In this document: positions 345 through 58,566 of the stretch, piece after piece
Numbering within the stretch: the stretch's first letter is position 1
Layout: each line of letters opens with the position of its first letter
From: Mycoplasmatota bacterium
Lineage (GTDB): Bacteria; Bacillota_I; Bacilli_A; RF39; UBA660
Reading direction: 5' to 3'
Assembly: GCA_022771205.1 (NCBI GenBank)
Contig: JALFCF010000005.1
Location: 90,399 to 154,398 of the forward strand
Length of the DNA stretch: 64,000 nt
The notes under the pieces: model-generated
The model's database searches: none
The model's input: the letters and a program-made list of their open reading frames with translations, nothing else
What the model was told of the DNA's origin: nothing
Made by a program: the position numbers and the translations under genes

Positions 345-1058
345 CTAATAATTTCCTGTTTCCTGCAATAACGTTGCTAAATCATAAAGGTTTCCATCTT
401 CATCCTGTGCTAATATAGTAACACTACTACCCATTTGTGATAAAGAATTAGCAGAATAAAATTTAACAATATTTGAAATTCCAGATAAAGTTCCATATGA
501 TTTTAAATTTTCATGATCAGTAGAATAAGCTTTTTTTAATGGTAAATATTGAACAGTACCGTCTTCCAACAAAAATAACAATGTATCACCAGAAACATCT
601 TGTCCAATACCACCAAAGAAAATATCAACTACCTTCTGTTCAAATACTATCTCATGTGGCTCATAAGTATAATCATCATTAGAAGTAACCCAACCAAGTC
701 TATAATTTTGACTAATCAAATAATGATTAATAGATACAGTAACTTTGGTCTGACTACTATCTAAATAAATATTAGTACCGGAAGCATGAGATGGAACAGT
801 TAATGTATAGCCTTCAGCTGAAGCATTTACAACTTTACTAGAATCAAAAATATAATTATTTTTTTCTATTTCAGATGTTGTCTGATCAGATATTTTATTT
901 TTGCTATCCTTACTTTGAACTTTAGCAGATTCAAAAATTAAAATTTTTTGTGAATATAAAACATAAAAAATTCCACAAGATAATACTATTCCTATAAAAA
1001 CGCCTATAATTCCATACAAAAATATATGATTTTTTTTCTTTTGATTATCTACTTCCAT
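345..1058 (-). CDS. hypothetical membrane-anchored (N-terminal TM) extracytoplasmic protein
   Basis: ORF with ATG at 1058 behind an AGGAG SD. A single hydrophobic helix ([24 protein letters not shown]) is followed by a Ser/Thr-rich soluble domain. I recognise no family. Confidence 0.45.
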
Positions 1059-1105
1059 AAACACACTCCTATTCTATAAATAGAATAACATAAATGCCAA
1101 AATTT

Positions 1106-2769: not shown

Positions 2770-3465
2770 CTATTTGTCAAAATTATTTTCAACTTTAATT
2801 CCAGGACCCATAGTTGAAGCTATAGAAATACTCTTAACATAATCACCTTTTACTGTTGCTGGCTTAACTCTTAAAATAGCTGATACGAAAGCATTTAAGT
2901 TTTCCATCAAATCTTCTTCAGAGAATGAAACCTTACCAATAACTCCGTGAATAATTCCGAAACTATCAGCACGATATTCAACACGTCCAGCTTTAACTTC
3001 TTGAACAGCTTTAGCAACATCTAAAGTAACAGTTCCAGTTTTAGGGTTAGGCATTAATCCTTTTGGTCCTAAAACTCTACCTAATTTACCAAGAAGAGGC
3101 ATCATATCAGGAGTAGCAATCATAGTATCAAAATCGAACCAATTTTCTTTTTCGATTTTTTCTAACATATCAACATCTCCAACATAATCAGCACCAGCTT
3201 CTTTTGCTTGATTAGCCTTTTCTCCTTTTGCAATAACTAAAACTTTTGTAGTTTTACCAGTTCCTTTAGGAAGTACAATAGCACCTCTTAATTGTTGGTC
3301 AGCTTTTTTAGTATCAATATTTAATCTGATAGCAACTTCAACTGTACCATCAAAAGAACTAGTAGAAGTTTCTTTAACTAACTTAACAGCTTCTTCTTTA
3401 GTATATGCTTTATTACGTTCTACTTTAGACATAGCTTCTGTATATTTCTTACTTCTCTTTTTCAT
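2770..3465 (-). CDS. rplA: 50S ribosomal protein L1
   Basis: [26 protein letters not shown]..., L1 family. Confidence 0.9.
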
Positions 3466-3532
3466 CTTTATTCCTCCTTACGTGGTAATAGCGGTTAAAA
3501 CCTTCCACATAGGTATAACCTACATAGAACAA

Positions 3533-3970
3533 TTACTTATCTGTATAACCAGGGATTGAAATACCCATATTTTTAGCAGTACCAGCAACAATCTTCATTG
3601 CAGCTTCTACATCATAAGCATTTAAATCTGGTAATTTGATCTCAGCAATTTCTCTTAATTGATCTTCAGTTAATGTAGCAACAACTTCATTAGCTCCTTT
3701 AACTGCACCTTTATTGATTTTTGCATATTTTTTAAGTAAAAATGCAACTGGTGGAGTTTTAATTACAAAATCAAAACTTCTATCATCATAAATTGAAATT
3801 TCTACTGGTAAAATATCTCCCATCTTATCTCTAGTAGCATCATTATACTTAGTACAAAAATCTTGTAAATTAATTCCTGCAGGTCCTAAAACTGTTCCAA
3901 CTGGTGGAGCTGGTGTAGCTTTTCCTGCTGGGATTTGTAATTTAATCTTCTTTATTGCTTCCTTTGCCAC
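3533..3970 (-). CDS. rplK: 50S ribosomal protein L11
   Basis: L11 homology (KLQIPAGKATPAPPVGTVLGPAGIN). Start set to the second GTG at 3970, 9 nt after AGGAGG; the first GTG abuts the SD. Confidence 0.88.
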   Translation of the reverse strand: MAKEAIKKIKLQIPAGKATPAPPVGTVLGPAGINLQDFCTKYNDATRDKMGDILPVEISIYDDRSFDFVIKTPPVAFLLKKYAKINKGAVKGANEVVATLTEDQLREIAEIKLPDLNAYDVEAAMKIVAGTAKNMGISIPGYTDK

Positions 3971-4122
3971 GAAAAACACCTCCTATAATTTTAGTTTTCG
4001 CGAGTGGTCCAAATAGCTTGATTCCCGCTTTCATAAATGCAAACCATGCTTCCCACTAAATCTATATTAATTTCAATATAGCCCCTAAATAATAACATAT
4101 AAATTATATTTTTGCAACTATT

Positions 4123-5110: not shown

Positions 5111-5953
5111 TTATCTAAATAAATAAGATAAAAACAAAATAACAAAACCTAATACAAACACTAATATTGGATAGATTAAAGCCCTAGCAAAAGCAGCTTC
5201 TTTTTTTACTAAACTAGCATAAATAAGTTCATTAGCCTCTTCATTTTGTGGAAGAAAATCTTCTGCAGTATAAGCAGAACCATTAGTCTTAACTAATCTT
5301 TTTCCACTACTATTATTTTCTCCAGAAGAAACTTCTTTTTCTAAATTTTGTAAATCTCTTTTCTTACGTTCACCAACATAAGCACTATAATAAACAGATG
5401 CACCCTTTTCAATGATGCCAGAATAATACGGAACATCTTCGAGAGGCAAAAAAATTGTAAATTGTTGAAAATTATCCTTAATAGCAGGTATTGTATTCAT
5501 TGTAAAATGTTGCAAACATTTGGCATAAAGACCAATATGTAAAACAGATGCCATAAAGATATTATCACGAACAACTTGCTTCTGTTGAGAAATATCATAT
5601 GGTAATGGTGCTAATTCCTGAAATTGAATTTGTCTAATTGAATGATTTAATAATGATATTCTATCAAGAGCAAAAGAGGAGATATAATACCCTTGATCAT
5701 GAATATATTTCATAGCAATATCCATATTAACAAACAAATTCTGTAACTGATTATTAGTACGATAACTCTGCAACCATTCATTCAAAGTAATTGAATCAAT
5801 CTCTTTATGACGAAATGGAATAATTTTTGATGACTTTAAATTTTTGAAACTATCATCTGAAGAAAAAGATTGATCACCATTTACCCCATCAAAATAAGGA
5901 ACAGTTGGAATCTGTTCTTTTGTATTTACTCGCAATTGCTCCTGTCCTATCAT
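5111..5953 (-). CDS. hypothetical protein with C-terminal TM anchor, immediately downstream of sigH
   Basis: 280-aa ORF that ends in the hydrophobic helix LIYPILVFVLGFVILFLSYLF. It occupies the slot where Bacillus has yacP/rpmGB. I recognise no family. Confidence 0.5.
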   Translation of the reverse strand: MIGQEQLRVNTKEQIPTVPYFDGVNGDQSFSSDDSFKNLKSSKIIPFRHKEIDSITLNEWLQSYRTNNQLQNLFVNMDIAMKYIHDQGYYISSFALDRISLLNHSIRQIQFQELAPLPYDISQQKQVVRDNIFMASVLHIGLYAKCLQHFTMNTIPAIKDNFQQFTIFLPLEDVPYYSGIIEKGASVYYSAYVGERKKRDLQNLEKEVSSGENNSSGKRLVKTNGSAYTAEDFLPQNEEANELIYASLVKKEAAFARALIYPILVFVLGFVILFLSYLFR

Positions 5954-5997: not shown

Positions 5998-6597
5998 TCA
6001 ATTTAAATTATAGTTTTCTATTACTTTTTTCAAAAATTTTCGAGCTTTACAAATTTTAGATTCAACAGAAGAAAGATTTAAATCTAAAAGTTCTGCAATT
6101 TCCTTATTAGAAAAACCATTATATCTCATTTCAAAAACACATCTAGTTTCTAGATCTAACATATAAGACGATAAAAAAATACACTCGATTAATTCCTTAG
6201 AAGTAGAATTACAAAATTCTCCAAAAAAAGTATGATCTGGAATAATATTTAAAGAATAATCACTATCAGAAATAGAAAAATTTAAATTTTGATGTTTTAG
6301 TGCAGAAAGGGATCTACAATAAGTTCTAATAGTTCTTTCAATACATACAGTAGCAAATGTATAAAATATAGTATTATTATCATTACGATAATTAACGATT
6401 GCACTATTTAATCCAATATATCCCTCTTGTATCAAATCTTGATATTCCGCACCACATCGACTAGCAAAATTAAAATATTTACTAGCAATTGATTTAATGA
6501 TAGGTAAATACTTTTGATATAAAATATCATAACTGACATCCATATTTTCACTAATCAAATATAATAACTCATAATCATTAACATTTTTATAATCCAA
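5998..6597 (-). CDS. sigH: SigH-like sigma-70 family factor (region 2 + region 4)
   Basis: YQDLIQEGYIGLNSAIVNY (region 2) and IAELLDLNLSSVESKICKARKFLKK (region 4 HTH). It sits in the conserved cysS-mrnC-rlmB-sigH-secE-nusG position. Confidence 0.7.
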   Translation of the reverse strand: MDYKNVNDYELLYLISENMDVSYDILYQKYLPIIKSIASKYFNFASRCGAEYQDLIQEGYIGLNSAIVNYRNDNNTIFYTFATVCIERTIRTYCRSLSALKHQNLNFSISDSDYSLNIIPDHTFFGEFCNSTSKELIECIFLSSYMLDLETRCVFEMRYNGFSNKEIAELLDLNLSSVESKICKARKFLKKVIENYNLN

Positions 6598-9236: not shown

Positions 9237-11462
9237 TTACTGATAAACTGTATTCAAATCAATATATTCTAATAATTTATCAACCTTTCTCGCACCAAAA
9301 TTAGAGTAATCACAATTATCTTTCACGTATTTACATATTTTTTTCTTCCTATCCAATTCAAGTTTAGGAAATTTTTGTTCTACTTTTTGCATAATTATTT
9401 TATTAATAGTGGCTGCCGAAAAAGGTAAAAAATGTAAAACCAAGTCTATGCGATTAACAAGTTCCGAACCAAAAAATTCCCTTAAATCATTTTCAATCAA
9501 ATCTTTACTATTCTCTAAAAAACCAATTCCTTCTCTATTACTTCCCAAATTAGAAGTCATAAAGATAATAACATTAGAAAAATCCACAGAATCTCCATAA
9601 GATGTAGTCATAACCCCATCGTCTAAAACTTGTAAAAAAAGCTTTAAAACACTTGGATTTGCTTTTTCTATTTCATCTAATAGCAAAACAGCATAAGAGT
9701 GTATTTTTATTCTTTCCAAAATTGTATTCCTATCATCATAACCAACATAACCAGGAGGAGAACCAATTATTTTAGATATAGAAGTAGCATCTTTATACTC
9801 ACTCATATCTAATTTTATAAAAGCTTCTTTCGGATAAAGTAAATCGGCAAATTTACGTACTAATAAAGTTTTACCTAACCCACTTTTCCCAACAATAAGA
9901 AAACATTTCGACGCTTTTTTATTTAAGTTTTTACAAAATACAGATTTAGTCAAACTAGTAATAGCTTCTTCCTGCCCAACAACTGTTTTCTGTAACTCCC
10001 TCTTTAAAGATTCAGAATTTAATGACAAAATTTTTTTAATAGGTATCTTAGTTTTAGAATAAATAACATCATAAACAGTATCTATAGATAAAATTGGTTT
10101 AATATTACTTTGTGTTTGAATCAGAAGATTATTAATTTTGGATTGTAAAAAAGCCTCTCTTTCCCGTAAATATGTAGCTCTTTTAAAATCATGATCAACA
10201 ATAGATTTATTTTTTTCATCAATCAAATTGGTAAGCTCTAATTGAAGATTGTGAATTTTTTCATTTTCTAATGTATTCATACTAATTGTCTTTGAACAAG
10301 ATTCGTCTAATAAATCCAATGCTTTATCTGGTTGTTTTCCACTAGATATATATCTTTCTGATAAATCAGCTATAGAAAATAAAATTTCATCGGTTAATAT
10401 AACACCATGATAATTTTCATATATTTCCTTGACATTCAATAAAATAGATTTTACATTTTCTAAATCTGCCTCCATAACAATTACTTTTTGAAATCTACGA
10501 TCAAAAGCTTTATCACCTTCCAAAAACTTCATATATTCATGTTTCGTAGTTGCTCCGATTACCTTAATTTTACCTCTAGCTAAATATGGTTTTAAAATAT
10601 TGGAAGCATCTATTGCTCCTTCAGCTCCCCCAGCACCAATAATAGTATGAATTTCATCTATAAATAAAATGATATTAGAAACACTCTCTAATTCATCTAT
10701 CATCTTATTAATTCTCTCCTCAAACTCTCCACGATATTTAGTACCTGCAACTAAAGAAGAAATAGAAACACTTAAAACCCTCATATTTTTAAGTTCATTA
10801 GGAACTAAACCTAAAACTATTCTTCTGGCTAATTCCTCTACTAAAGCAGTTTTACCTACTCCCGCATCACCTATAAGTAAAGGATTACTTTTTTTTCTTC
10901 GAAGTAAAATTTCAATAATATTACAAATTTCTTCATCTCTTCCAATCACAGGATCAAAGTCGCCATTTTTTGCTGCTTGTGTAAAATCAGTAGAAAACTC
11001 TTCTATAGTTAATTTACTAAACGTATTTTTTCCTTCACATACAAGATGACTAGAAAATTGTTCATATAAATTATCTAAATCTATATTCATTCCCATCATA
11101 ATTCTATTCGCAACACCTTCTCCTTCTTCTAACAGCGACAAAAATAATTGTTCCACAGTAACATCCTTATTTTCATCTTTACTATCTAAAATAGCATTTT
11201 CAATAATCTTTTTTAATAAAGGAGTATATAGAAACCATTTAGAAATTTTTCTTCCAACTCCTATAACTTCTATAAGCTTATTTTTAAATGATGAATAAGT
11301 AATACCATTTTGTTCTAAAAAAGATAAAAATTTTTTATCAGAATAATGCAAAATAGACAACAATAAATGCTCACTACTAACATAAGGATGCTTTAATTCT
11401 TGCATCTCTTTTTTGGACATAATTAATATTTTTTGGGCTTCTTCCGTGAATTTCGAAAACAT
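9237..11462 (-). CDS. clpC: ATP-dependent Clp protease ATP-binding subunit ClpC-like (Clp-N repeats + two AAA+ modules)
   Basis: Start corrected to MFSKFTEEAQKIL (ATG at 11462 behind an AGGAGA SD). D1 Walker A is GDAGVGKT; D2 is GKSGLGKT; sensor motifs are present. No ctsR/mcsA/mcsB lies upstream. Confidence 0.8.
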   Translation of the reverse strand: MFSKFTEEAQKILIMSKKEMQELKHPYVSSEHLLLSILHYSDKKFLSFLEQNGITYSSFKNKLIEVIGVGRKISKWFLYTPLLKKIIENAILDSKDENKDVTVEQLFLSLLEEGEGVANRIMMGMNIDLDNLYEQFSSHLVCEGKNTFSKLTIEEFSTDFTQAAKNGDFDPVIGRDEEICNIIEILLRRKKSNPLLIGDAGVGKTALVEELARRIVLGLVPNELKNMRVLSVSISSLVAGTKYRGEFEERINKMIDELESVSNIILFIDEIHTIIGAGGAEGAIDASNILKPYLARGKIKVIGATTKHEYMKFLEGDKAFDRRFQKVIVMEADLENVKSILLNVKEIYENYHGVILTDEILFSIADLSERYISSGKQPDKALDLLDESCSKTISMNTLENEKIHNLQLELTNLIDEKNKSIVDHDFKRATYLREREAFLQSKINNLLIQTQSNIKPILSIDTVYDVIYSKTKIPIKKILSLNSESLKRELQKTVVGQEEAITSLTKSVFCKNLNKKASKCFLIVGKSGLGKTLLVRKFADLLYPKEAFIKLDMSEYKDATSISKIIGSPPGYVGYDDRNTILERIKIHSYAVLLLDEIEKANPSVLKLFLQVLDDGVMTTSYGDSVDFSNVIIFMTSNLGSNREGIGFLENSKDLIENDLREFFGSELVNRIDLVLHFLPFSAATINKIIMQKVEQKFPKLELDRKKKICKYVKDNCDYSNFGARKVDKLLEYIDLNTVYQ

Positions 11463-11537
11463 AATATCATCTCCTATATTTATTGTAAAAATAAGAAGAA
11501 AGAGTTTCAAGAAATAAAGTACCCAAAAAATAGACAA

Positions 11538-21604: not shown

Positions 21605-21817
21605 TTAAGGTAAAATTTCTAAACTTTGAGTCAAAATATCACTATAACTAAATGTTTTTATTTTATTATTTTCAGTTTCAATAGTAAATATTGCTGGATA
21701 TAAATCAACAATCACACCATGAAATTCATCTACTTGATTTCGTGAACCATGAAAGCGAAAAGAGCACTTTATACCTTGATTTTGTTCTACAACTTTCTTT
21801 ATATTATCAATCATCAT
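21605..21817 (-). CDS. veg: Veg-family small protein
   Basis: FRFHGSRNQVDEFHGVIVDLYPAIFTIE...FSYSDILT resembles Veg. Confidence 0.65.
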   Translation of the reverse strand: MMIDNIKKVVEQNQGIKCSFRFHGSRNQVDEFHGVIVDLYPAIFTIETENNKIKTFSYSDILTQSLEILP

Positions 21818-22578
21818 CTTGGATACCCCACATACATAGTACCATTAGTGATAATTCCTCCCATTCCATCTTTACCATACTTTGTTTTTTCTAAGATGTG
21901 AATTAAATCTATGCTTTTATTTCTATCTGCTAATGCTAAAGAACAGGCTAAAATTGCTGGATCCAACGCATGAATATTAATTCTTTTAGGACTTGAAGCA
22001 AAATTAGCACCTGCTTTTATTAATTCTTCATAATTAGACTGACAAGCCCCCGCTATAATAATTAACTTATCTTGACTTTTTTCATATTTCCTAGCTTCTC
22101 TTACAGCTTCAATAAAATTCAAAGAGTTTTGATAATCTCCTCTATTTTTCTTTAAATAAGCATCATGACCAGTTATCACAACTATATCAGGCTGAAATTC
22201 ATCTAATAATCCATGAATTTTTCTAGGTATTTCTATCTCAGAAACAGTAAGACCATTAGCTTTTACGTTCATTTCCTTATAAAAATTCATACATCTTTTT
22301 AAATAATCACTATCCCCATCAATATGTAAAATCTTACCAGGTAAATAAAAATACTGACTCCTATCCATTTCTAAACTTCTTAAACTTTTTTCCACTATCT
22401 GTTTGTCAGAATCCAAAGAAACATTAGTCTTAACTAAATCAGATAACAAACTATCTGCATAAAGTCTTAAATCAGCACCTTTTAAAAATGCAATATTTCC
22501 ATCAATAGAAACTATTTTAAAAACGATATCATGATTATGAGAAATCCTTGTAACATAATCACCTTCATGAAAATCCAT
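21814..22578 (-). CDS. yabG: sporulation-specific protease YabG
   Basis: N-terminus MDFHEGDYVTRISHNHDIVFKIVSIDGNIAFLKG..LRLYADS is YabG-like. Located between ksgA and veg. Confidence 0.65.
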   Translation of the reverse strand: MDFHEGDYVTRISHNHDIVFKIVSIDGNIAFLKGADLRLYADSLLSDLVKTNVSLDSDKQIVEKSLRSLEMDRSQYFYLPGKILHIDGDSDYLKRCMNFYKEMNVKANGLTVSEIEIPRKIHGLLDEFQPDIVVITGHDAYLKKNRGDYQNSLNFIEAVREARKYEKSQDKLIIIAGACQSNYEELIKAGANFASSPKRINIHALDPAILACSLALADRNKSIDLIHILEKTKYGKDGMGGIITNGTMYVGYPR

Positions 22579-23472: not shown

Positions 23473-24159
23473 TTAAATAATTTCAATGTCTTCGTCACTT
23501 AACAAGCTCTTTTTCAATTTTCTGATTTTGATTAATTTACGTACCCTAATTACTTCTGTCATAATTAAATATAAAACAGGTAAAGCAATACAAAGAATCC
23601 ATCCAAAATAAGTAGATAAAAACCATCTAACATAACCCAACTTTGGAATTCTAAATAAAACTTTCCCATAAACGTTTTCTTCTCTAACCAAAATAGCATC
23701 AGCAACATTATTGTTGTCACCTTTAGTACGATACAATAAAGTTCCATCATTAGCTTCCACTATACCTATAATTCGATGAGTAACAACTTTCCCAGCATAA
23801 TAGGAATCTGTAGATAAATAACTAATAATATCACCTTGTTTTAACTTTTTTGGTGAAACTCTAGCAATAATAATGGCATCTTGAACATTAATTGTAGGAA
23901 CCATACTTGGACTTACTATAACATACGCATCAAACAGAGGTGGTTTATTTTCCCCAGAACGTAGATTATATAATAAATCTACAAAATAGAAAATGAAAAA
24001 AAGAAAAATAAGGGCTAATAAAAGAAAAACAACATACAAAAACACTTTAGTTACAAAATGAAAAAAGAATTGTATGACTTCTTTTATAGAAACAACATCA
24101 TCATGATTTGTATCAAAATATTGTTTCATAATAAGCCTCCTATCTATCATTATCTCCAT
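23473..24159 (-). CDS. sipW: ER/archaeal-type signal peptidase I (S26B, SipW-like) with extra N- and C-terminal TM segments
   Basis: VSPSMVPTI catalytic Ser region and THRIIG...TKGDNNNVAD, a Sec11/SipW-type motif. C-terminal TM helix. Confidence 0.65.
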   Translation of the reverse strand: MEIMIDRRLIMKQYFDTNHDDVVSIKEVIQFFFHFVTKVFLYVVFLLLALIFLFFIFYFVDLLYNLRSGENKPPLFDAYVIVSPSMVPTINVQDAIIIARVSPKKLKQGDIISYLSTDSYYAGKVVTHRIIGIVEANDGTLLYRTKGDNNNVADAILVREENVYGKVLFRIPKLGYVRWFLSTYFGWILCIALPVLYLIMTEVIRVRKLIKIRKLKKSLLSDEDIEII

Positions 24160-24221
24160 GATAACACGTGAAAATCAAAAAAACTAGTTTTAAGCAGAAA
24201 AAAAAGAAGAGTTGACATCCT

Positions 24222-24845
24222 CTACATAGCTTTTGCTACAACATTCAATTTAATATTAAAATCACGACTAATAGAGTCAATTACAGTATCCTGAGCAACC
24301 CACATACGCAATCTAAAACTATCTTTTATTTCTTTATCATGACTTGTCATATTAGATAACGTTCCCGAATATAATATCATACTTCCCTTCTTGCTACCCA
24401 AAAAACTATTATTCTCTAACGGAATAAAAGGCTGTGGATTTTGAGTAATTAATGTAGATTTATATGCATTATCTTCGTACTTTTCCAAATAAAATCTTAC
24501 ATCAGAATTAGAAAGAGTCGGTTTATCAGTTTTAATTTTTTCTACATAAATTTCATAATTAAGCGTTGTTTGTGCAGAAAGCATAGATTGTACTTCAAAA
24601 TCATAGACATTATTATCATCTAACATCATTCCATCTACATCAGAAGCAGGCATAGCATTTTCCATAGATAAAGCACCGTTTTCATTTTTCAATTTTAAAG
24701 ATATAGTTCCAGTAGAAATACCATTTATTTGAGAATCTTCAAAAACTGTAACAAAAGTAGCATAAGATACACCAACAAATGCAATAATTAAAACAGCAAT
24801 GCTAATAATAGATAATAAGATTTGTTTTGACTCAGTTTGTATCAT
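24222..24845 (-). CDS. TasA/camelysin-like secreted protein with SipW-cognate signal peptide (paralog 1)
   Basis: Start ATG at 24845 behind GGAGG. After the signal peptide and SYA, TFVTVFEDSQINGISTGTISLKL matches the A-x-F-x-D-x-E-x-S...GTLDL SipW-cognate motif. C-terminal FRLRMW block. Confidence 0.55.
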   Translation of the reverse strand: MIQTESKQILLSIISIAVLIIAFVGVSYATFVTVFEDSQINGISTGTISLKLKNENGALSMENAMPASDVDGMMLDDNNVYDFEVQSMLSAQTTLNYEIYVEKIKTDKPTLSNSDVRFYLEKYEDNAYKSTLITQNPQPFIPLENNSFLGSKKGSMILYSGTLSNMTSHDKEIKDSFRLRMWVAQDTVIDSISRDFNIKLNVVAKAM

Positions 24846-24916
24846 AAAAAAGCCTCCATATACTCCATGTATATTATGATATATATCACTCAAAACATAA
24901 AAGACTTCAAAGAAGT

Positions 24917-25510
24917 CTAATTTGCTTGTCCAAACACTTTAACTTTAACAGAATAAACTCCAGAAGGATCTACTACAGCACCTTCTCTAATCCACATTCT
25001 CAATCTATAATTAACTACCTTTTCAGATGAAAGTGTTACTTTATCTACAACCATAGATTTAGCTGGACTACCTAAAGATGTCTTTTTCTTACTTGGCATA
25101 AAGATTTTGGGATCATCAACCTTAGCATAACTACCACTATTCTGTTTTTCTAAATAGATTACAACATCATTATCAGAAATAGTAGATTCTGAATCTTTGA
25201 TTAAAGCAATTTCGTATTGTACTGACGAATCTTCATCAAGTTGAGAAGAAACTGCAAAATCAAAATAACTACCTTCTGTTCGTAAAGCTTTACCAACTTC
25301 ATTAGACATAGGAGTCAAATTTGCAAGTTTAAAATCAGCAGTTGATGTTTTATAATTCATTGTAACAACACTATTTTTAATGACTTCATTAACATTATTC
25401 TTTTGATGTTTAAAAAACATTATAAACGAAAAAATAACAACTAAAATTAAAATTACACTAATCCCTAAAATTATAAATAAAATATTCTTTGTTTTATAAC
25501 TATTATCCAT
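24917..25510 (-). CDS. diverged TasA-like paralog 2 (N-terminal TM anchor)
   Basis: Shares the ...L-x-N-x-x-P/MS..VG, YEI, V-x-x-YLE and YRLRMW blocks with paralog 1. Follows it after a 23-nt gap. Confidence 0.45.
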   Translation of the reverse strand: MDNSYKTKNILFIILGISVILILVVIFSFIMFFKHQKNNVNEVIKNSVVTMNYKTSTADFKLANLTPMSNEVGKALRTEGSYFDFAVSSQLDEDSSVQYEIALIKDSESTISDNDVVIYLEKQNSGSYAKVDDPKIFMPSKKKTSLGSPAKSMVVDKVTLSSEKVVNYRLRMWIREGAVVDPSGVYSVKVKVFGQAN

Positions 25511-25518
25511 ATTTCCTC

Positions 25519-26121
25519 CTAATCCATTATTCGAACATAAAGATTTACTTTAAAATTACGTATTTCTGTAGTAATAGGATAAGTATCAGCCAACCACATA
25601 CGTAACCTAAAAGTTTTCACTTCATTCTCTTTTAACGTCCCTGAATAAATTTTTTTACCAGCAGGATTTGTTCTGGCAACTTTCAAATCATGATAAGTAG
25701 GAATTTTATCTCGATAATCATCGAATGGTAAATCATTATGACCATCTGTTAAATAAACTTTTACATAATCGCTAGGAAGTTCCAAAGAAACTCCAGTTTG
25801 AATAGCGTAAATTTCATAATCAATAGATTTCATCCCATCAAAATTAGCAGAAACAGTAAATTCACTATAACCATATTTTGTCTGATTAGGAGTAAAAGTT
25901 AACTGTTTACCAACAACATCTGTAATCGGCATAGAATTATCTACTACAAGATCAGATGAATTATCAGAATAAGACAAAATTAATGTTGCATTTTTAATAT
26001 CTTGCTTATTATTATAGAAATAAAGAAATAAGCAAAATATTAAAGAAAAAATAGCAATCAAAACTAAAACAACTGAAATAAAAAGTGTATTGTTATGAGT
26101 TAATTTTTTCAAATGTTTCAT
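25519..26121 (-). CDS. diverged TasA-like paralog 3 (N-terminal TM anchor)
   Basis: Shares the DNSMPITDVVG, YEIY, VKVYL and FRLRMW blocks with paralogs 1 and 2. Separated from paralog 2 by an 8-nt gap. Confidence 0.45.
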   Translation of the reverse strand: MKHLKKLTHNNTLFISVVLVLIAIFSLIFCLFLYFYNNKQDIKNATLILSYSDNSSDLVVDNSMPITDVVGKQLTFTPNQTKYGYSEFTVSANFDGMKSIDYEIYAIQTGVSLELPSDYVKVYLTDGHNDLPFDDYRDKIPTYHDLKVARTNPAGKKIYSGTLKENEVKTFRLRMWLADTYPITTEIRNFKVNLYVRIMD

Positions 26122-29031: not shown

Positions 29032-29574
29032 TTATTCTTCAATATGTTTTCCTAAAAATTTAGAAACAACATCTGCCATTTTTTCTTCTACTTGACCAAC
29101 ATTTTGTTCTGAAATAATTAAAACTAATCCAATAGCATCGCCATTCATAATAACGGGAGAAATAATATAAGAATATTGTTCCATTTCAGAATCAAGAAAT
29201 TCAATATTATGTAGTTCCTTCTCAACAACTTTCACACGATCTTTCATAATAATTTCTAAAGATTTAGAAATAGGTTTACCTAAATACTTCTTTTTTAAAT
29301 TTCCGCTAGCTGCAATAAAATTATCACGATCAGTAATAAATACATTTTGCCCTATAACAGAATTAACAATATCTACTAACTGTTTAGAAATTTCATCCAT
29401 ATCTGTCATCTTAGAAAATTTCTTCAAAGCAATCATTTCTCTATCAACAAAAATTTCTAAAGACTCACCATCCCTGATTCTGAGAGTACGGCGAATTTCT
29501 TTTGGAATAACAATTCTTCCTAAATCATCTACTCTTCTAACTACACCTGTTGATTTCATATAATTATTCCTCAC
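29032..29574 (-). CDS. spoVT: stage V sporulation protein T-like regulator (AbrB-type N-domain + GAF-like)
   Basis: GVVRRVDDLGRIVIPKEIRRTLRIRDGESLEIF is the AbrB/SpoVT swapped-hairpin domain; a C-terminal domain of about 120 aa follows. Located downstream of mfd as in Bacillus. Confidence 0.7.
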   Translation of the reverse strand: MRNNYMKSTGVVRRVDDLGRIVIPKEIRRTLRIRDGESLEIFVDREMIALKKFSKMTDMDEISKQLVDIVNSVIGQNVFITDRDNFIAASGNLKKKYLGKPISKSLEIIMKDRVKVVEKELHNIEFLDSEMEQYSYIISPVIMNGDAIGLVLIISEQNVGQVEEKMADVVSKFLGKHIEE

Positions 29575-29728: not shown

Positions 29729-30391
29729 TTATTTATCTTCATTTAACAAATAAGAATTCATCTTAGTAAATAAAAATCTTTCTCCTTGCTCTCGAACTCC
29801 ATTAATTAAAGTAGTATCTTTAACAATTACCTTAAAATCAATACTTTCTAAAAGCTGTTTCAAATAAGTAGAACTGACAAATTTTATCATTTCATTAGAG
29901 ATTGCACTAACATCTTTTTTTTCTATTTTTTTTGTAAATAAAAGATTTACATTTTTGACAATTTTTTTATCAATAACTTCACTAATATCCGCTTTCATAG
30001 TTTTCTTTAATTTGCGATTTAATGGAATAAAATCTTTTTTATTAAACTTAATAACATCACTTTCCTTCTTAGGAGAAAAAGAAATAATATTTTTTTGTAA
30101 TTCTTCTATCCTTATTTTCTTCCAAGAAGGAATATATGTAATAATTTTTTTCCTATAGTTTTCTAAAATTTTATCTAATGCATCAGCTTGAATTATTGTC
30201 CTATGACGTTTAGCTAATTCTAAAAATTTACATTTAATAATATCCATAGAATCAAGTGGAGGTTTTTTTAATAAAAATAAAACATCATCATCAAATAAAG
30301 AAATAGTATTATTTTTTAGTGTTTCTAAAACTGCATTTTTATAATTTTCAAAATGTTTTTGTTTAAAATCCTCAATTGTCTCTTGATTCAT
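29729..30391 (-). CDS. hypothetical Lys-rich cytoplasmic protein between mfd and spoVT
   Basis: 220-aa ORF with no TM or signal peptide and no recognisable motif. Confidence 0.45.
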   Translation of the reverse strand: MNQETIEDFKQKHFENYKNAVLETLKNNTISLFDDDVLFLLKKPPLDSMDIIKCKFLELAKRHRTIIQADALDKILENYRKKIITYIPSWKKIRIEELQKNIISFSPKKESDVIKFNKKDFIPLNRKLKKTMKADISEVIDKKIVKNVNLLFTKKIEKKDVSAISNEMIKFVSSTYLKQLLESIDFKVIVKDTTLINGVREQGERFLFTKMNSYLLNEDK

Positions 30392-44295: not shown

Positions 44296-46233
<1,938 letters not shown>

Positions 46234-47343
46234 CTACTTTCTCTCAACTTTACCATTTTTCACATTGTATATATAAGCATCCGTTAAATACTTTTTATTT
46301 ATATTTTTCAAATCAGTAGTTGTAATTACACTCTGAATACCTGTATGAATTAATTTTAAAAGTCGATTTCTCTTTTTTAAATCTAATTCACTAAATATAT
46401 CATCCAAAAGAAGGACAGGTTTAGTACTTAACATACTTTCGAATATAGGAATTTCTGACAATTTATAAGCAAGGACAGCAGTCTTTTGCTGACCTTGAGA
46501 CCCAAAAAACTTCAAATTTTTATCGGACAAGAAAAAAGAAAAATCATCCCTATGCGGTCCAACAAGTGTCATACCATAATTTAACTCTTTTTTATAATTC
46601 TTTTTATAGTAATGTTTCAAAGTTTTACGAATAGTTTCACCATCATAATCAGAAAATTCTATATTTGGTTCATATCTAACCAATAACCCGACTTCCCCAT
46701 TAATATCTTTATAATAAGTATTTATAGATTCATTAATTAAATCTAAGTATTCTTTGCGCTTCTGATAAATAAAAGTAGCTTTTTCGATTAATTTATCAGT
46801 AATAATATCCAAATAACTAGAATCAGCTATAGAATTTTGAAATAAAACTTTCAAATACTCATTTCTAGTTCTAAGCAATTTATTATACTCATTATAAATA
46901 TTTAAATAAATTTTAGAAATTTGCGAAAGCTGTATGTTTAATAGGTTGCGTCGTACATTTGGAGATCCTTTTATAATTTCCAAATCATCAGGTGAAAATA
47001 CAATAATATTCAAATTAGAAATATAATCAGCAACTTTGCGAATCTCTGTTTGGTTTACAAATAATTTTTTCTCATTATCAACTATTTCTACTTCTAATTT
47101 AGATATTATTTTTTCTTTCTGAATAACTCCTTTAATTTTTGCTTTCTTTTTATTGAACATAATAACATTAGGATGTACGCCTAAACGATGAGATTTAGTA
47201 AGTGCCAAAAAAGTTATTGCCTCTAAAATATTTGTCTTACCTTGCGCATTATCTCCTACAAATATGTTCATTCCCACACCTAATTTAATAGATAAAGTAG
47301 AATAATTTCTAAAATTTAATAAATTTAATTTAGTGATTTTCAA
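46234..47343 (-). CDS. recF: DNA replication and repair protein RecF
   Basis: Walker A GDNAQGKTN and ABC signature; position dnaN-x-recF-gyrB. Confidence 0.9.
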   Translation of the reverse strand: MKITKLNLLNFRNYSTLSIKLGVGMNIFVGDNAQGKTNILEAITFLALTKSHRLGVHPNVIMFNKKKAKIKGVIQKEKIISKLEVEIVDNEKKLFVNQTEIRKVADYISNLNIIVFSPDDLEIIKGSPNVRRNLLNIQLSQISKIYLNIYNEYNKLLRTRNEYLKVLFQNSIADSSYLDIITDKLIEKATFIYQKRKEYLDLINESINTYYKDINGEVGLLVRYEPNIEFSDYDGETIRKTLKHYYKKNYKKELNYGMTLVGPHRDDFSFFLSDKNLKFFGSQGQQKTAVLAYKLSEIPIFESMLSTKPVLLLDDIFSELDLKKRNRLLKLIHTGIQSVITTTDLKNINKKYLTDAYIYNVKNGKVERK

Positions 47344-47466
47344 TCAGACTTAAAAAAAAGACCCATATAATCACCTATCCCCTACTTCGGTATTCCTATA
47401 CATACATATATATTATAGCATAAAATAACCAAATAAGATAGGAAAAAGTGATTTTATAGATACTTT

Positions 47467-47916
47467 TTATAGGTTAGATTTTCTTTTTCTCATCATAAAA
47501 TCTAATCTAGACGCTCTAGATATTTGATTTTCTAAAGTTCGATAAGAAACTGGAACAATAATTTCTTTATTATTATCAAATATAACCTTAGTATTAACAC
47601 TATCTACCTTTTCAAAAAATTTAATTCTTTTTAAAGAAATCCAAATACAATCTTGAGACTTTGGAGAAGTAGTAGGAAAAACAATCAAATTATCTGTATC
47701 TTCTACAATTACAGGTACTTTATATTCAGCTCCTAATATTGATTTAGCACTATCTTTTCTTCCTTCATAAGTACTACCAAAATACTTACAACTATCTTCC
47801 ATTATTTCAAATGGACTCTGATTAACCAAAAAGCGATCTTCATCCTCATATACTAAGCTTTGATTAATTTCATTTGGCATAATTGCCAAAGTTCCTTTAT
47901 TAATTTCATATTCCAT
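47467..47916 (-). CDS. comK: ComK-family transcription factor homolog
   Basis: YEINKGTLAIMPNEI...SCKYFGSTYEGRKDSAKSILGAEYKVPVIVEDTDNLIVFPTTSPKSQDCIWISL...VSYRTLENQ. This parallels B. subtilis ComK (SYEVNGATIAVLP...SCRFFGSSYAGRKAGT...FLFPTLSS...QCGWIS...ISYNSFENQ). Start ATG at 47916 behind AGGAGGGGG. Confidence 0.6.
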   Translation of the reverse strand: MEYEINKGTLAIMPNEINQSLVYEDEDRFLVNQSPFEIMEDSCKYFGSTYEGRKDSAKSILGAEYKVPVIVEDTDNLIVFPTTSPKSQDCIWISLKRIKFFEKVDSVNTKVIFDNNKEIIVPVSYRTLENQISRASRLDFMMRKRKSNL

Positions 47917-48046
47917 AAAATTTCCCCCTCCTAAACATGAAATTGTCCCTAGAATACTAAATTCAATTGTCATATTTTGTCATTTTATAAAATTTGCTCA
48001 ATAAAATTATCAAAAATAAAAGAATCCACAATATTTGTGGATTCTT

Positions 48047-49174
48047 TTAATATGTACGAATAGGTAAAACTAATTGAGTTAAAGTTTCATCTTCACTAGA
48101 CTTAATTAATATTGGTTTAATTTCTCCAACAAAATGAATATCAACAGTTTCAGTGGAAAAACTCTTTAATGCTTCCATCATATATTTTGCACTAAATGAA
48201 ATTTTTATATCTTCACTATTATTTTTCAGTATAGGCATTTTTTCTTCTACTCGACCAATTTCTACAGAAGAACTTTTTAACACCAATATATCGCCCTTAG
48301 TTTCCAATGTAACGATGTTTTTCTCTTTATCACTAGTTAATATACTAACTCTATCAATCACGTCGTAGAAAGCATTTAAATTAGTACTAACAACTAAATA
48401 AGAATCATCTGGTAACAAATTAGATGTATTAGGATAAGTTCCATTAATTAAACGAGACTCAAATTTTAAATTACCAGTCTTAAATAAAATTTTATTATTA
48501 AAGATGTGTAATTCAATATCACCATCTTCATCATCAATAATTCTAGAAAATTCTAAAATATTATGACTAGGAATAACTATATTATAATTCTCTTCACTGG
48601 CACCATCTAATTTTATTACCTTTCTTGCTAAACGGTAAGAGTCAGTAGAATTACACTCTAATACATCCCCTACTATATTAAAGTTAATACCAGTTAAAAC
48701 AGGTTTACTTTCTTCATTAGAAGAAGCAAAAGCAGTTTGATTTACAATATCCTTAAAAACAGAAGCTTTAATATGAACTTTTTTCTTACTTTCTTCTAAA
48801 CCGATATTAGGATATTCACTTTCACTAATACCATTTAAATTAAATTCACTGTTTTCTGTGTAAATTAATATTTTTAATTCATCAATAACTTCTATATTAA
48901 TATATTTATCTGGTAACTTACGTACAATATCTAATATATACTTTCCCTGAATAATAATACTACCCTCTTGTTCAACTTTAAAATCCTCCTCATTGGTAGA
49001 TTCAATCATAGTTTGAATAGTAATATCATTATCACTAGCAGTTAAAGTTAACTTTTTCTTTTTTAGTTCAAACTTAATACCAGCTAAAACTGGAATAAGA
49101 TTTTTAGTTGAAATAGCCTTAGATACCTTATTAAGTGCATTTAATAATAAATCCTTTTTAATTGTTAATTTCAT
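48047..49174 (-). CDS. dnaN: DNA polymerase III beta sliding clamp
   Basis: Three-domain beta clamp; MKLTIKKDLLLNALNKVSKAIS. Confidence 0.9.
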   Translation of the reverse strand: MKLTIKKDLLLNALNKVSKAISTKNLIPVLAGIKFELKKKKLTLTASDNDITIQTMIESTNEEDFKVEQEGSIIIQGKYILDIVRKLPDKYINIEVIDELKILIYTENSEFNLNGISESEYPNIGLEESKKKVHIKASVFKDIVNQTAFASSNEESKPVLTGINFNIVGDVLECNSTDSYRLARKVIKLDGASEENYNIVIPSHNILEFSRIIDDEDGDIELHIFNNKILFKTGNLKFESRLINGTYPNTSNLLPDDSYLVVSTNLNAFYDVIDRVSILTSDKEKNIVTLETKGDILVLKSSSVEIGRVEEKMPILKNNSEDIKISFSAKYMMEALKSFSTETVDIHFVGEIKPILIKSSEDETLTQLVLPIRTY

Positions 49175-49306: not shown

Positions 49307-50695
49307 TTACACAACCCCTATATCTTTTTTTAATTTTTCAATGATATTTGCTAAATCTTTGTTAACTTTTATTTCTCTTTCAATCTTCTCGACAGAATGC
49401 ATTACTGTAGTATGATCTTTTCCACCAAATTCAGTACCAATTTTAGGGAATGACTCATTTGTCATAATTCTACAGAGGTACATTGCAATCTGACGTGGAA
49501 AAGAAATATTAGAACTTCTCTTCTTACTTCGAATATCTTCAACAGAAATCTGAAAGTATTCAGATACAATTTTTTGAATACGCTGAACGTCGTTCTTTTC
49601 CCCCATTCCTTTACTAATAAAGTCTTTTAGTGCTTCAATAGCTAAGTCTAAAGTAATTTCGGCACCTCCCATGATTGTAGAATATGCAATTAATCTAGTA
49701 ATAGATCCTTCTAATTGTCTAACATCAGTACCAATATTCGAAGCTATATATTCGACAACATCATCTGGAATTTCTGTTTCAAAGTTACCAGCGATAATCT
49801 TTTTCTTTAAAATTTCCGTTCGAAGAGTAAAATCTGGAGGGAAAATATTTACTGTTAATCCCCAACAAAATCGAGTACGAAGACGATCTTCAAGCAATTT
49901 TAAGTCATCAGGAGACCTATCAGAAGATATAATTATTTGTTTACTATCATTATATAAGCTATTAAATGTGTGAAAAAATTCCTGCTGTGTTTGTGTAGCT
50001 CCGCCTAGAAATTGAATATCATCAATAATTAATACATCAATGTTTCTATATTTATTTTTAAAGAAATCCACATAATTAAAATTTGTACCTTTATCATCTT
50101 TTTTGTTAATTCCAATAAAATCTTGAATAAATTGATCAGATGTAACATAAAGAACACGACGATTACTGTTTTCAGTAATATAATTTCCTATCGCATGCAT
50201 TAAATGAGTCTTACCTAATCCACTATTACCATAAATAAATAGTGGGTTGTACATATTTCCTGGATTTTCAGCAACAGATAATGCAGCAGCATGAGCAAAC
50301 TTGTTACTATTTCCTACAATAAAATTATCAAAAGTATATTTGCTCTTCAAATTTGATTGTGCTTGATTATGTGGAACTCCGAAGTTCTCATTATTATTTT
50401 GAATATCCCCCTGCTCTATTTCAATAGTTTTTTCTTCCTCTTCAACAATTTCTTCTTTCAGTAAGAACACTAATTCAAAATTAGTACCAGTAATATTATT
50501 TAAATGATTCAATATAAGATCTGAATAATTATCTGCTAAATGTTTCTTATGTATCGGCATTGGTACAATAATATAGGCTTTACCACCATCAAGTTTATGC
50601 AATTCAGTATCTTTAAACCAAGTATCAAAAGAAAGAGAGGTCAAATCGTCTTTAACTTCTGTTAGAAATTTAGACCACAAAATATCTACATTCAT
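49307..50695 (-). CDS. dnaA: chromosomal replication initiator DnaA
   Basis: AAA+ (GNSGLGKTHL), DnaA signature, C-terminal HTH. Start ATG at 50695 (MNVDILWSKF). The 39 upstream codons in the track read through the DnaA-box array. Confidence 0.95.
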   Translation of the reverse strand: MNVDILWSKFLTEVKDDLTSLSFDTWFKDTELHKLDGGKAYIIVPMPIHKKHLADNYSDLILNHLNNITGTNFELVFLLKEEIVEEEEKTIEIEQGDIQNNNENFGVPHNQAQSNLKSKYTFDNFIVGNSNKFAHAAALSVAENPGNMYNPLFIYGNSGLGKTHLMHAIGNYITENSNRRVLYVTSDQFIQDFIGINKKDDKGTNFNYVDFFKNKYRNIDVLIIDDIQFLGGATQTQQEFFHTFNSLYNDSKQIIISSDRSPDDLKLLEDRLRTRFCWGLTVNIFPPDFTLRTEILKKKIIAGNFETEIPDDVVEYIASNIGTDVRQLEGSITRLIAYSTIMGGAEITLDLAIEALKDFISKGMGEKNDVQRIQKIVSEYFQISVEDIRSKKRSSNISFPRQIAMYLCRIMTNESFPKIGTEFGGKDHTTVMHSVEKIEREIKVNKDLANIIEKLKKDIGVV

Positions 50696-50790: not shown

Positions 50791-50922
50791 CTATCCACAA
50801 AATATTCCACAAAAAAAGTTAAATAAAATAAAGATAAAAATAGCATTTCCACAGTTTCCACAGATTTTTTATAACAACCGTGTAAAACCAAATCCACAGC
50901 ACTGTGGATATTGTGGAAACAA
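50791..50922. promoter_or_regulatory. oriC part 1 (upstream of dnaA): cluster of about 7 DnaA boxes
   Basis: Both orientations are present: tATCCACAa, TTCCACAa, tTTCCACAg x2, aATCCACAg, TGTGGATAt and TGTGGAAAc, all within 130 bp. Confidence 0.65.
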
Positions 50923-56988: not shown

Positions 56989-57081
56989 CTCTTTTTATTT
57001 TCATTTTTCTTGAAAGTAAAATGAAAATAGTCTATAATGATAACATAGGATAACTGTAAGAATAAAAAGTGAGGGATGAGT

Positions 57082-58536
57082 ATGCAAGAACAAACTAAAG
57101 ATGAAGTTGTATACCTATATTTAGATGATATCATACCAAACAGATTTCAACCTCGCGAGGTTTTTGACGAAAGAGCTTTAAAAGAATTAGCTGTATCAAT
57201 TAAAGAACATGGAGTAATTCAGCCAATTATAGTAAGAAATGTTAATGGTAAGTATGAAATAATTGCTGGTGAAAGAAGATATAAAGCCTCTGCTATGGCG
57301 GGTTTAACAAAAATTCCCGCAATTATTAGAAATTTAGATGATAAAGAAAGTTCAAAAGTAGCATTGTTAGAAAATCTCCAAAGAAGAAATTTAAATCCGA
57401 TCGAAGAAGCTAGAACTTATCAAAAAATATTAGAACTTGATCAAATGACTCAAGAAGAATTGGCAAAAACAATGGGAAAAAGTCAATCAGCAGTTGCTAA
57501 TAAAATAAGACTATTAGGCCTTACAGATGAAGTACAAGATGCTTTATTGAAAGAACAAATATCAGAGCGTCATGCTAGAACATTATTAAATATATCAGAT
57601 GCAAAGAAGCAAAAAGAAATGCTAAAAAGGATAATAAATGAAAAAATGACGGTACGGCAATTAGAAGCAGAAATAAAAAGTATGTACCCTAAAGAGGAGG
57701 GGGAAACAGTGAGTAATACATCTACAGCAATCACATCAGCAGCTTTTGTAAATACTAGTCCATTGATGCCAACAGCAGATTTACCAGAAGATAAATCCAA
57801 TTATGGTCAAATAAAAATTGCACCACCCACTGGTACAGAAGAAGAATATCAACCAAGATTTATAAATTATGGAGAGATAAAAGATGATGATGAAGATGAT
57901 GATGAAGTACCAATTGGTGGAATTAATCCGGACAGTACTCAATCTATTCCTAATATAAAAGATATTAAGGAAAAAGCAGTTGACATTAATGCTCCACAGG
58001 CACAGCCAACAGCAGATTTAGACAGTTTATTAAATATTACAGCAGCATCCTCAGGAATTTCAAAACCAGATGAACATTATAAATTTATTACTCCAGCAGA
58101 AGAAATAGTAAAAACAGATGCAAGCAAAGCAAATAAAGCTAAGGTACAAGATTATTTTAAAACTCCCGATTTGATACCAGTAAATTTACCAAATGAAGTC
58201 CAATCTACTAAAGAAACAAACCAAGTTTCTTTATCTGAGATAGAAGCTAAATCAAAGCTGCAAAATAAATCAGCTGAATCAACAACCTTGCATGATTCAA
58301 GATATGATAAAAAGACTTTAAACAATACAAACTTAAATACAAACTTATTTGGCAATATCCAAAGAACAAATTTGAACGATAAGAAAAACAATCAATTTAC
58401 AGTACAACAATCTATAGATATGATTAGAAACTTAGTGGACGAATTAAATCGTCATGGAGTAAACGCAGATATTGATGAAATGAACTTTTCTAAATCATAT
58501 CAAATTATTATAAAATTAGATAAGACAGCAGAGTAA
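57082..58536 (+). CDS. noc: ParB/Noc-like nucleoid occlusion protein homolog with long low-complexity C-terminal extension
   Basis: ParB N-domain (IIAGERRYKAS) and HTH (QEELAKTMGKSQSAVANKIRLLGL) lie within the first ~200 aa. About 280 extra residues follow: Ser/Thr/Asn/Lys-rich with an acidic DDDEDDDE block and a short structured-looking C-terminus. Located in the rsmG-noc-soj-spo0J slot. Confidence 0.7.
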   Translation: MQEQTKDEVVYLYLDDIIPNRFQPREVFDERALKELAVSIKEHGVIQPIIVRNVNGKYEIIAGERRYKASAMAGLTKIPAIIRNLDDKESSKVALLENLQRRNLNPIEEARTYQKILELDQMTQEELAKTMGKSQSAVANKIRLLGLTDEVQDALLKEQISERHARTLLNISDAKKQKEMLKRIINEKMTVRQLEAEIKSMYPKEEGETVSNTSTAITSAAFVNTSPLMPTADLPEDKSNYGQIKIAPPTGTEEEYQPRFINYGEIKDDDEDDDEVPIGGINPDSTQSIPNIKDIKEKAVDINAPQAQPTADLDSLLNITAASSGISKPDEHYKFITPAEEIVKTDASKANKAKVQDYFKTPDLIPVNLPNEVQSTKETNQVSLSEIEAKSKLQNKSAESTTLHDSRYDKKTLNNTNLNTNLFGNIQRTNLNDKKNNQFTVQQSIDMIRNLVDELNRHGVNADIDEMNFSKSYQIIIKLDKTAE

Positions 58537-58540
58537 TAAG

Positions 58541-58566
58541 AGTAGATAAAAATCTACTTTTTTTTC
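58541..58566 (+). terminator. intrinsic terminator after noc
   Basis: AGTAGAT-AAAA-ATCTACT hairpin followed by T8. Confidence 0.5.

Follow-up and report, generated by a model that had tools for sequence, protein, structure and literature searches.

A Tail-Less ComK-Family Gene Between dnaN and recF at the Replication Origin of RF39-Type Gut Bacilli

The Locus

The stretch of DNA considered here is a 64-kb segment of the genome of a Mycoplasmatota bacterium, referred to below as the window, and all coordinates follow its numbering. Its subject is a short-form gene of the ComK family located at 47467..47916 on the minus strand, the product of which has 149 amino acids and comprises the ComK domain with no C-terminal tail. 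The gene stands in a series of minus-strand genes in the order dnaA (50695..49307), dnaN (49174..48047), the ComK-like gene, recF (47343..46234), gyrB (46224..44296) and gyrA. As rnpA, yidC, jag and mnmE are oriented opposite to dnaA–gyrA and the GC skew switches sign at approximately 51 kb, the segment is placed at the replication origin. The skew switch is accompanied by a cluster of DnaA-box-like sequences just upstream of dnaA (~50.8–51 kb), where seven heptamers of the forms TGTGGAT/TGTGGAA and TTCCACA/ATCCACA lie at 50799–50918.

The neighbouring genes were assigned from their open reading frames (ORFs), together with the GC skew for dnaA, the likely start of which reads MNVDILW, and synteny for the others (by tblastn in the case of dnaN). 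Orthologs of dnaN carry DNA_pol3_beta domains and those of recF carry SMC_N/AAA_23 domains. The recF gene begins with a TTG codon and has no Shine–Dalgarno (SD) sequence of its own, and gyrB closes the conserved dnaA-dnaN-ComK-recF-gyrB block.

The usual occupant of the dnaN–recF slot in Bacillus is yaaA, an S4-domain gene. The ComK-like gene shares this chromosomal slot and a similar small size with yaaA, but the two protein families are unrelated. A sequence-only reading of this DNA had described the ComK-like gene as the sole gene in the slot, and both the ORF list and the gap lengths bear this out. The gene is separated from dnaN by 130 bp and from recF by 123 bp, which leaves no room for an S4/yaaA gene.

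Start Codon and Family Membership

ComK is the textbook example of a bistable competence switch. The ORF list also holds a longer form of the window gene, at 47467..47973 (minus strand), which would begin at an upstream ATG (47973) and encode 168 amino acids. The ATG at 47916 is the true start, giving the 149-amino acid form, since it is preceded eight bases upstream by the SD sequence AGGAGGGGG (47924..47932, minus strand, as read from the sequence) and its methionine is where 24 aligned homologs of 72–91% identity begin. A G-rich SD sequence (AGGGGGA or similar) is kept in nearly all orthologous loci.

The product matches the Pfam ComK profile (PF06338) with a score of 160.8 bits (E 2.6e-47), far above chance and above the cut-off of 22.3. 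The alignment covers profile positions 3–151 of 152 and protein residues 2–146 of 149. No model in NCBIfam matches the 149-amino acid product. When compared by BLASTP with a canonical ComK of 192 amino acids, the protein is 34% identical over residues 3–138 (E 1e-31). In a set of 44 family members, short and long, three residues (G52, K66 and P68) never vary, and a further set is conserved in at least 90% of the sequences (Y3, T9, E24, C43, G47, R53, F80, P81, S84, C90, W92, F113, Q131 and L138). Among 25 aligned sequences there are 82 invariant columns, a sign of strong purifying conservation. Judged by profile and alignment, the product is a genuine ComK-family protein of a distinct short type. 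The profile search that had been proposed thus gave a clear match, and the earlier assignment of a 149-amino acid ComK homolog, with conservation over its whole length, is upheld by an end-to-end alignment in which the family-wide residues are kept.

A Short Subfamily Without the Tail

When 1.84 billion cluster representatives were searched, 1333 ComK-family clusters were found (E ≤ 0.001), and these form two length classes. More than 1000 homologs share the length of the window protein. An alignment of both classes shows that the long class runs 25–45 residues past the end of the window protein, and that it also has an N-terminal extension of approximately 8–12 residues and a 4-residue insertion, both of which are missing from the short class. 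In two canonical ComKs of 192 amino acids the Pfam domain spans residues 10–158 and is followed by 34 residues, whereas the window protein ends three residues after the domain and has no counterpart of the tail of approximately 35 amino acids that marks an activating ComK. A neighbour-joining tree of 130 full-length representatives, clustered at 50% identity, splits 83 short from 47 long sequences. The tree is rough, and the short class in it is likely monophyletic.

The tail has been studied in B. subtilis ComK, where residues 158–192 are disordered and are needed for activation and for cooperativity between boxes (bioRxiv 10.64898/2026.03.17.710445). In the same study, ComK without its tail bound one A/T box as a dimer, while two-box cooperativity and function were lost. 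Earlier work cited there found that removal of the 35 C-terminal residues in vivo abolishes transcriptional activity (bioRxiv 10.64898/2026.03.17.710445). As the domain of the window protein ends at residue 146 of 149 and the tail maps to residues 158–192 of the B. subtilis protein, the window protein is a natural tail-less ComK. It resembles the B. subtilis protein (192 amino acids) in having the shared Pfam domain at full length, with approximately 34% identity to a canonical 192-residue member. It differs in having neither an equivalent of residues 158–192 nor the N-terminal extension of approximately 8–12 residues.

A shortened relative is known from B. cereus. When ComK2, which is 22 residues shorter at its C-terminus, is co-expressed with B. 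subtilis ComK, the expression of comG falls (PMC3128618). Like the window protein, ComK2 is naturally shortened and without C-terminal residues linked to activation, and the authors propose a repressing role for it (PMC3128618). However, ComK2 is missing 22 residues only and occurs alongside a full-length ComK1, whereas the window protein is missing the whole tail and occurs as one syntenic ortholog per locus examined.

Predicted Fold

An AlphaFold2 model of the protein, built with 43 sequences, has a pLDDT of 94.1 and a pTM of 0.87. It is compact and made up of beta strands and two short helices, with residues 125–148 forming a long helix at the C-terminus. Superposition of the model on solved LytTR domains reveals a LytTR-like beta fold, and the model supports a predicted role in DNA binding. 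An unrelated fold, which had been named as a result that would overturn the ComK assignment, is ruled out by this confident model. No sequence relatives with a solved structure were found. LytTR proteins bind 9-bp direct repeats approximately 21 bp apart. The window protein differs from LytTR regulators such as S. pneumoniae ComE and S. aureus AgrA in that there is no sequence similarity (6–10% identity) and in having no receiver domain. A 2026 preprint had already pointed out that the ComK and LytTR folds resemble each other (PMC13232269).

Gene Order in Related Genomes

The synteny of the locus was scanned with one genome per GTDB species, giving 80 loci with proteins 61–92% identical to that of the window. 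They come from metagenome-assembled genomes labelled as uncultured gut “Bacilli”, “Tenericutes”, “Mycoplasma sp. CAG:877” and Candidatus Faecimonas, which suggests an RF39-type group. The order dnaA-dnaN-ComK-recF-gyrB is present in 80/80 of these species, all with a contig reaching both neighbours, and again in 11/11 further look-ups that extend to relatives of approximately 40% identity. Nowhere in the 91 loci examined is there an S4 gene between dnaN and recF. Five distant loci were compared directly with the window, with identities of 40–47% for the ComK-like protein, 46–53% for DnaN, 39–47% for RecF and 70–78% for GyrB. One of the distant clusters (P0144) corresponds to Candidatus Aphodocola sp./Clostridium sp. 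CAG:594.

That the protein diverges as fast as DnaN and RecF do points to vertical inheritance under a constraint of the housekeeping level. On the evidence of gene order and divergence, the ComK-like gene belongs to the core genes that RF39-type gut Bacilli, predicted spore-formers with reduced genomes, inherit vertically, and its place between dnaN and recF is fixed. The comK gene of B. subtilis lies far from oriC, so that a fixed position at the origin sets the window gene apart from it. The origin position had been called unusual on the sequence alone; it is real and unlike that of canonical comK, but it is no oddity of a single genome. The suggested check of synteny in related genomes found the order kept throughout. 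A search of the literature (ComK with dnaN or recF; RF39 with competence or comEC; ComK with Erysipelotrichia) found no description of the arrangement.

Two of the loci (L004, at 3276..4000, and L008, at the same place) have an insertion of approximately 720 bp between dnaN and the ComK-like gene. The insertion contains an antisense, interrupted P-loop ORF (MTNIFILGLSRTGKSS followed by a stop) and has no match in Rfam.

The Promoter Region

Directly after dnaN there is an intrinsic terminator (48017..48049, minus strand), in which a stem of 15 pairs precedes a T run and which splits the ComK-like gene from dnaA-dnaN. Terminator hairpins occur at the same place in orthologous loci. A promoter-like site for the ComK-like gene, ATGACA-18-TAGTAT, was found by consensus scan at 47954..47983 (minus strand), and its position fits the extended −10 (TGnTAnAAT) of orthologous loci, with the transcription start being a predicted one. 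The terminator, this promoter-like site, the strong SD sequence and the separate promoter of recF together indicate that the ComK-like gene would form its own transcription unit.

The stem of the dnaN terminator consists of two inverted DnaA-box-like heptamers (ATCCACA ... TGTGGAT). DnaA boxes were considered as a conserved element of the promoter and rejected, as only 14–21 of the 79 promoters have them and their density does not stand out from the background.

When the 80 upstream regions are right-justified, a common layout is seen, in which two to five same-strand direct repeats with a 10-bp phase abut the extended −10 and are followed by the G-rich SD sequence. The repeat units upstream of the orthologs read TTCGACA, TAGACA, TTGACA or TCTACA, with TTYGACAAA as the consensus. 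The core pattern GAC-N7-GAC occurs at 4.4/kb in these regions against 0.036/kb elsewhere in the 80 loci, a 120-fold enrichment, and is found on the coding strand only, 65–100 nt upstream of the ATG. A perfect TTCGACA is present in 23/80 promoters (2.9/kb vs 0.024/kb). The window has a degenerate version of these repeats, TGACA-N5-TGACA (47968..47982, minus strand), which is the sole match in the 64 kb, where 0.10 are expected.

The unit TTCGACA is the reverse complement of the core of the Spo0A box, TGTCGAA. In C. difficile, spo0A and sigH have A/T-flanked 0A boxes at −75 and −78 (PMC3485338). Phosphorylated Spo0A (Spo0A~P) has been found to bind the B. subtilis comK promoter, PcomK, directly at several sites (PMC3297582). 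Sporulation has been predicted for RF39 from gene content at the level of the order (PMC10868615). Two sporulation genes were noted in the window, namely spoVT (29032..29574, minus strand), with an AbrB-like N-terminus and a SpoVT_C domain, and yabG, a sporulation protease gene (21814..22578, minus strand). Their presence in a small genome of 28% GC fits the published prediction. From the match to the 0A core, the PcomK precedent, the predicted sporulation and the presence of spoVT and yabG, it is reasonable to infer that the promoter of the ComK-like gene may be under Spo0A-type control, which would liken it to PcomK of B. subtilis.

A hairpin in the 5′-UTR, just before the SD sequence, appears in most relatives of 61–78% identity when the sequences are folded singly. 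It is seen in loci L018–L078 at approximately 10–45 nt upstream of the start of the ComK-like gene and is absent from the window (47917..47953). Its stems vary yet stay complementary, as in the pairs GAAAAC/GUUUUC, GGAAAC/GUUUCC, GAAAGC/GCUUUC and AGACCU/AGGUCU. The subclade of the window has a conserved AATTTCATGTTTAGGAGGGGGAA in place of the hairpin.

The recF Promoter and Leader

The recF gene has a separate promoter, of which the extended −10 (TGCTATAAT) is read from the sequence at 47412..47420 (minus strand). Almost every orthologous locus has the form TGnTATAAT, the one exception being a G-to-T change in L087. Just downstream of the −10 lies a near-invariant leader element, TGTATAGGAATAC (GTAT-N4-ATAC; 47390..47402, minus strand). 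This element has one exact match in the window, is conserved across loci of 61–100% identity and is recognisable in those of 40–47%. A near-invariant leader, GTATGTATAGGAATACYGAAATAGGGGATAGGTGA, follows TGnTATAAT in the window (47340..47420, minus strand) and at the same place in loci L001–L091.

A structured RNA in this leader was considered and rejected, since there is no Rfam match and RNAalifold returned only a 4-bp hairpin with no covariation. Located at the predicted transcription start, GTAT-N4-ATAC looks more like a putative operator than an RNA structure. Further downstream there is an 8-codon upstream ORF (MGLFFKSD; 47340..47366, minus strand) with a strong SD sequence, the TGA stop of which overlaps the TTG start of recF (TTGA). 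In orthologous loci it has 8–9 codons and overlaps the recF start as ATGA or TTGA. The overlap of stop and start suggests translational coupling.

K-Boxes

The canonical K-box consists of two A4-N5-T4 boxes at a spacing of 8, 18 or 31 bp. The sequence-only reading had proposed a scan for such sites, and the scan found no two-box K-box upstream of the ComK-like gene or of recF. At a spacing of 8 bp and with up to one mismatch there were no matches in the window, while the 18-bp spacing gave one remote match in the window, at 58549, of chance level. The 79 dnaN–ComK and 80 ComK–recF intergenic regions yielded one two-box match in total. The absence of a two-box K-box is a further difference from B. 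subtilis comK, and these scans give no evidence of Bacillus-type autoregulation in the sequences covered.

Single A4-N5-T4 boxes are present in the window at a chance level (20 vs 16.3 ± 3.8 in shuffled sequences). One of these (AAAATCACTTTTT, 47443..47455) is found between the stop codon of the ComK-like gene and the recF promoter, where most other species have a terminator hairpin. An apparent excess of single boxes in the orthologous intergenic regions was rejected as a signal, as these boxes fall on terminator hairpins that have A and T runs at their flanks.

A SigH-Like Sigma Factor

The window also encodes a sigma factor with Sigma70_r2 and r4_2 domains (5998..6597, minus strand), in the slot cysS-mrnC-rlmB-sigma-...-secE-nusG. 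It lies between an rlmB-like methylase gene and secE-nusG, with the neighbours identified by Pfam, and thus occupies the canonical position of sigH. An L10 leader is located downstream of the region. Of the specific NCBIfam models, those that match the sigma factor best are SigH equivalogs, which align end to end but at 61–63 bits against cut-offs of 208–295; the generic sigma70-ECF superfamily model is passed. The factor is best described as SigH-like by position and best match only, and as divergent. An earlier claim that a SigH-like sigma lies near the ComK-like gene thus stands as to its presence in the canonical slot, but the two genes are 41 kb apart and the SigH cut-offs are not reached. 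Their proximity reflects the conserved Firmicutes order of the origin region, compressed in a small genome, and not a functional cluster.

Proposed Role and Alternatives

The reading preferred here is that the locus encodes a tail-less ComK, expressed from its own unit, fixed at the origin, receiving a Spo0A-like input and acting on targets in DNA uptake and recombination. As a whole it is given a probability of approximately 55%. Dimers of the protein would bind single sites in A/T-rich DNA and would show no tetramer cooperativity, in the manner of tail-less B. subtilis ComK. As there is no tail, two-box cooperativity and the tail-dependent mechanism of activation would be unusable, and the protein may work simply as a dimeric regulator or repressor; alternatively, it may activate transcription in some other way. 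Expression of the gene would be set by a factor that reads the TTYGACAAA direct repeats just upstream of the −10, for which Spo0A~P is the best candidate, and also by origin-proximal gene dosage, as with pneumococcal comCDE. The most likely targets would be genes of DNA uptake and recombination, which is the weakest step of the proposal.

Several observations weigh against this proposal. The subclade of the window has no perfect TTCGACA but the degenerate TATGACA, which agrees with the 0A core at 5/7 positions. The gene spo0A itself was not seen in these genomes and is assumed from the published order-level prediction. The repeats could equally serve a regulator of the OmpR/PhoB type or the ComK-like protein itself. 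With no two-box K-box and no excess of single boxes, there is no direct evidence for a binding site of the ComK-like protein, and dimeric binding would be an extrapolation from B. subtilis at approximately 34% identity. Genes for comE/F/G and dprA were not found among the window ORFs scanned against Pfam (most ORFs of at least 100 amino acids) or in the fetched loci, which cover the origin only; whole genomes were not searched. Of these, comG/comE/comF would be the targets if the protein were a canonical master activator of the B. subtilis type that switches them on with the SigH-like sigma, the role to which the sequence-only reading pointed. The full-length ComK domain, the SigH-like sigma in the genome, the upstream repeats that resemble Spo0A boxes as at PcomK, and a ClpC-like ATPase encoded in the window (9237..11537) are all in keeping with such an activator. 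In Bacillus, ComK is under the control of its protease partner ClpC. However, the tail on which activation and two-box cooperativity depend is absent from the whole subfamily, an autoregulatory two-box K-box is missing (none at 8 bp and one of chance level at 18 bp in the window; one in 79 promoters), and the late competence genes it would control are putative. In addition, the closest studied truncated relative found, B. cereus ComK2, which is not itself of the short class, lowers comG expression. A canonical activator is thus considered unlikely.

The loss of the tail, by which the protein is expected to bind DNA without activating, would also suit a protein that has left competence control and serves as an origin-linked, housekeeping repressor or nucleoid-associated protein on recF, on genes of replication and recombination or on the origin region. 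In favour of this, the gene has been retained by all genomes examined from a lineage with reduced genomes, diverges at the same rate as DnaN and RecF and is invariably adjacent to recF, the predicted transcription start of which carries the near-invariant, operator-like GTAT-N4-ATAC. The argument is positional only, however, with no binding site linked to the protein, and the adjacency to recF may be inherited gene order. The gene also has its own promoter, and the direct repeats there, together with the 5′-UTR hairpin of most subclades, make it look regulated rather than constitutive. Such a role is rated as improbable, to the same degree as that of a canonical activator. A decaying comK pseudogene that has been truncated, or an annotation artefact such as a chance ORF, could be suspected from the gene being shorter than canonical ComK and from the existence of the 168-amino acid form, but more than 1000 homologs have the same length, 82 columns are invariant in 25 sequences, the compact model is of high confidence, and all orthologs end at the same point, which is followed by the recF promoter. 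The conservation data already refute this explanation, and almost no weight is left to it.

Within the preferred reading of a tail-less ComK with Spo0A-like input, a broader and more tentative proposal can be made. Short ComKs may be an unrecognised orthologous subfamily, fixed in the origin cluster throughout an order of uncultured, spore-forming gut bacteria with reduced genomes, that links both Spo0A state and the copy number of the origin to DNA uptake and recombination in a tail-independent manner; this would seem doubtful as a complete account. If it were true, the mechanism of short ComKs would differ from the Bacillus paradigm. The ComK family and shortened ComK paralogs are already known. 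The novelty lies in recognising a large subfamily of short ComKs whose place at the origin does not vary and whose promoter is conserved. A clade that retains the DNA-binding core only, seen in at least 83 of 130 representatives (of 1333 clusters) and in 80/80 genomes of related species, offers a natural experiment on the ComK core acting alone. Abundant uncultured RF39 gut bacteria may in this way tie DNA uptake or recombination to signals of replication and sporulation, and the fixed dnaN-ComK-recF order provides a simple genomic marker of the lineage. The value of these findings is comparative and hypothesis-generating, with function being read from sequence and model only.

Other Features of the Window

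A ParB-like protein of 486 amino acids is encoded at 57076..58536 on the plus strand, with ParB_N and HTH_ParB domains in its first ~200 residues. The C-terminal ~280 residues are without a match, and a similar protein of 485 amino acids adjoins dnaA in a distant relative (L087, 1..732).

There are also a number of ORFs on the minus strand for which Pfam gave no match. Between the SigH-like sigma and secE lies an ORF of 280 amino acids (5111..5953), which has no match in NCBIfam either; in Bacillus this place holds rpmG only. Two others are located between mfd and spoVT (29729..30391, 220 amino acids) and at 345..1064 (239 amino acids). Four consecutive ORFs of 200, 197, 223 and 228 amino acids are found at 23473..26121, between tatD and rsmA (ksgA), and may be paralogs.
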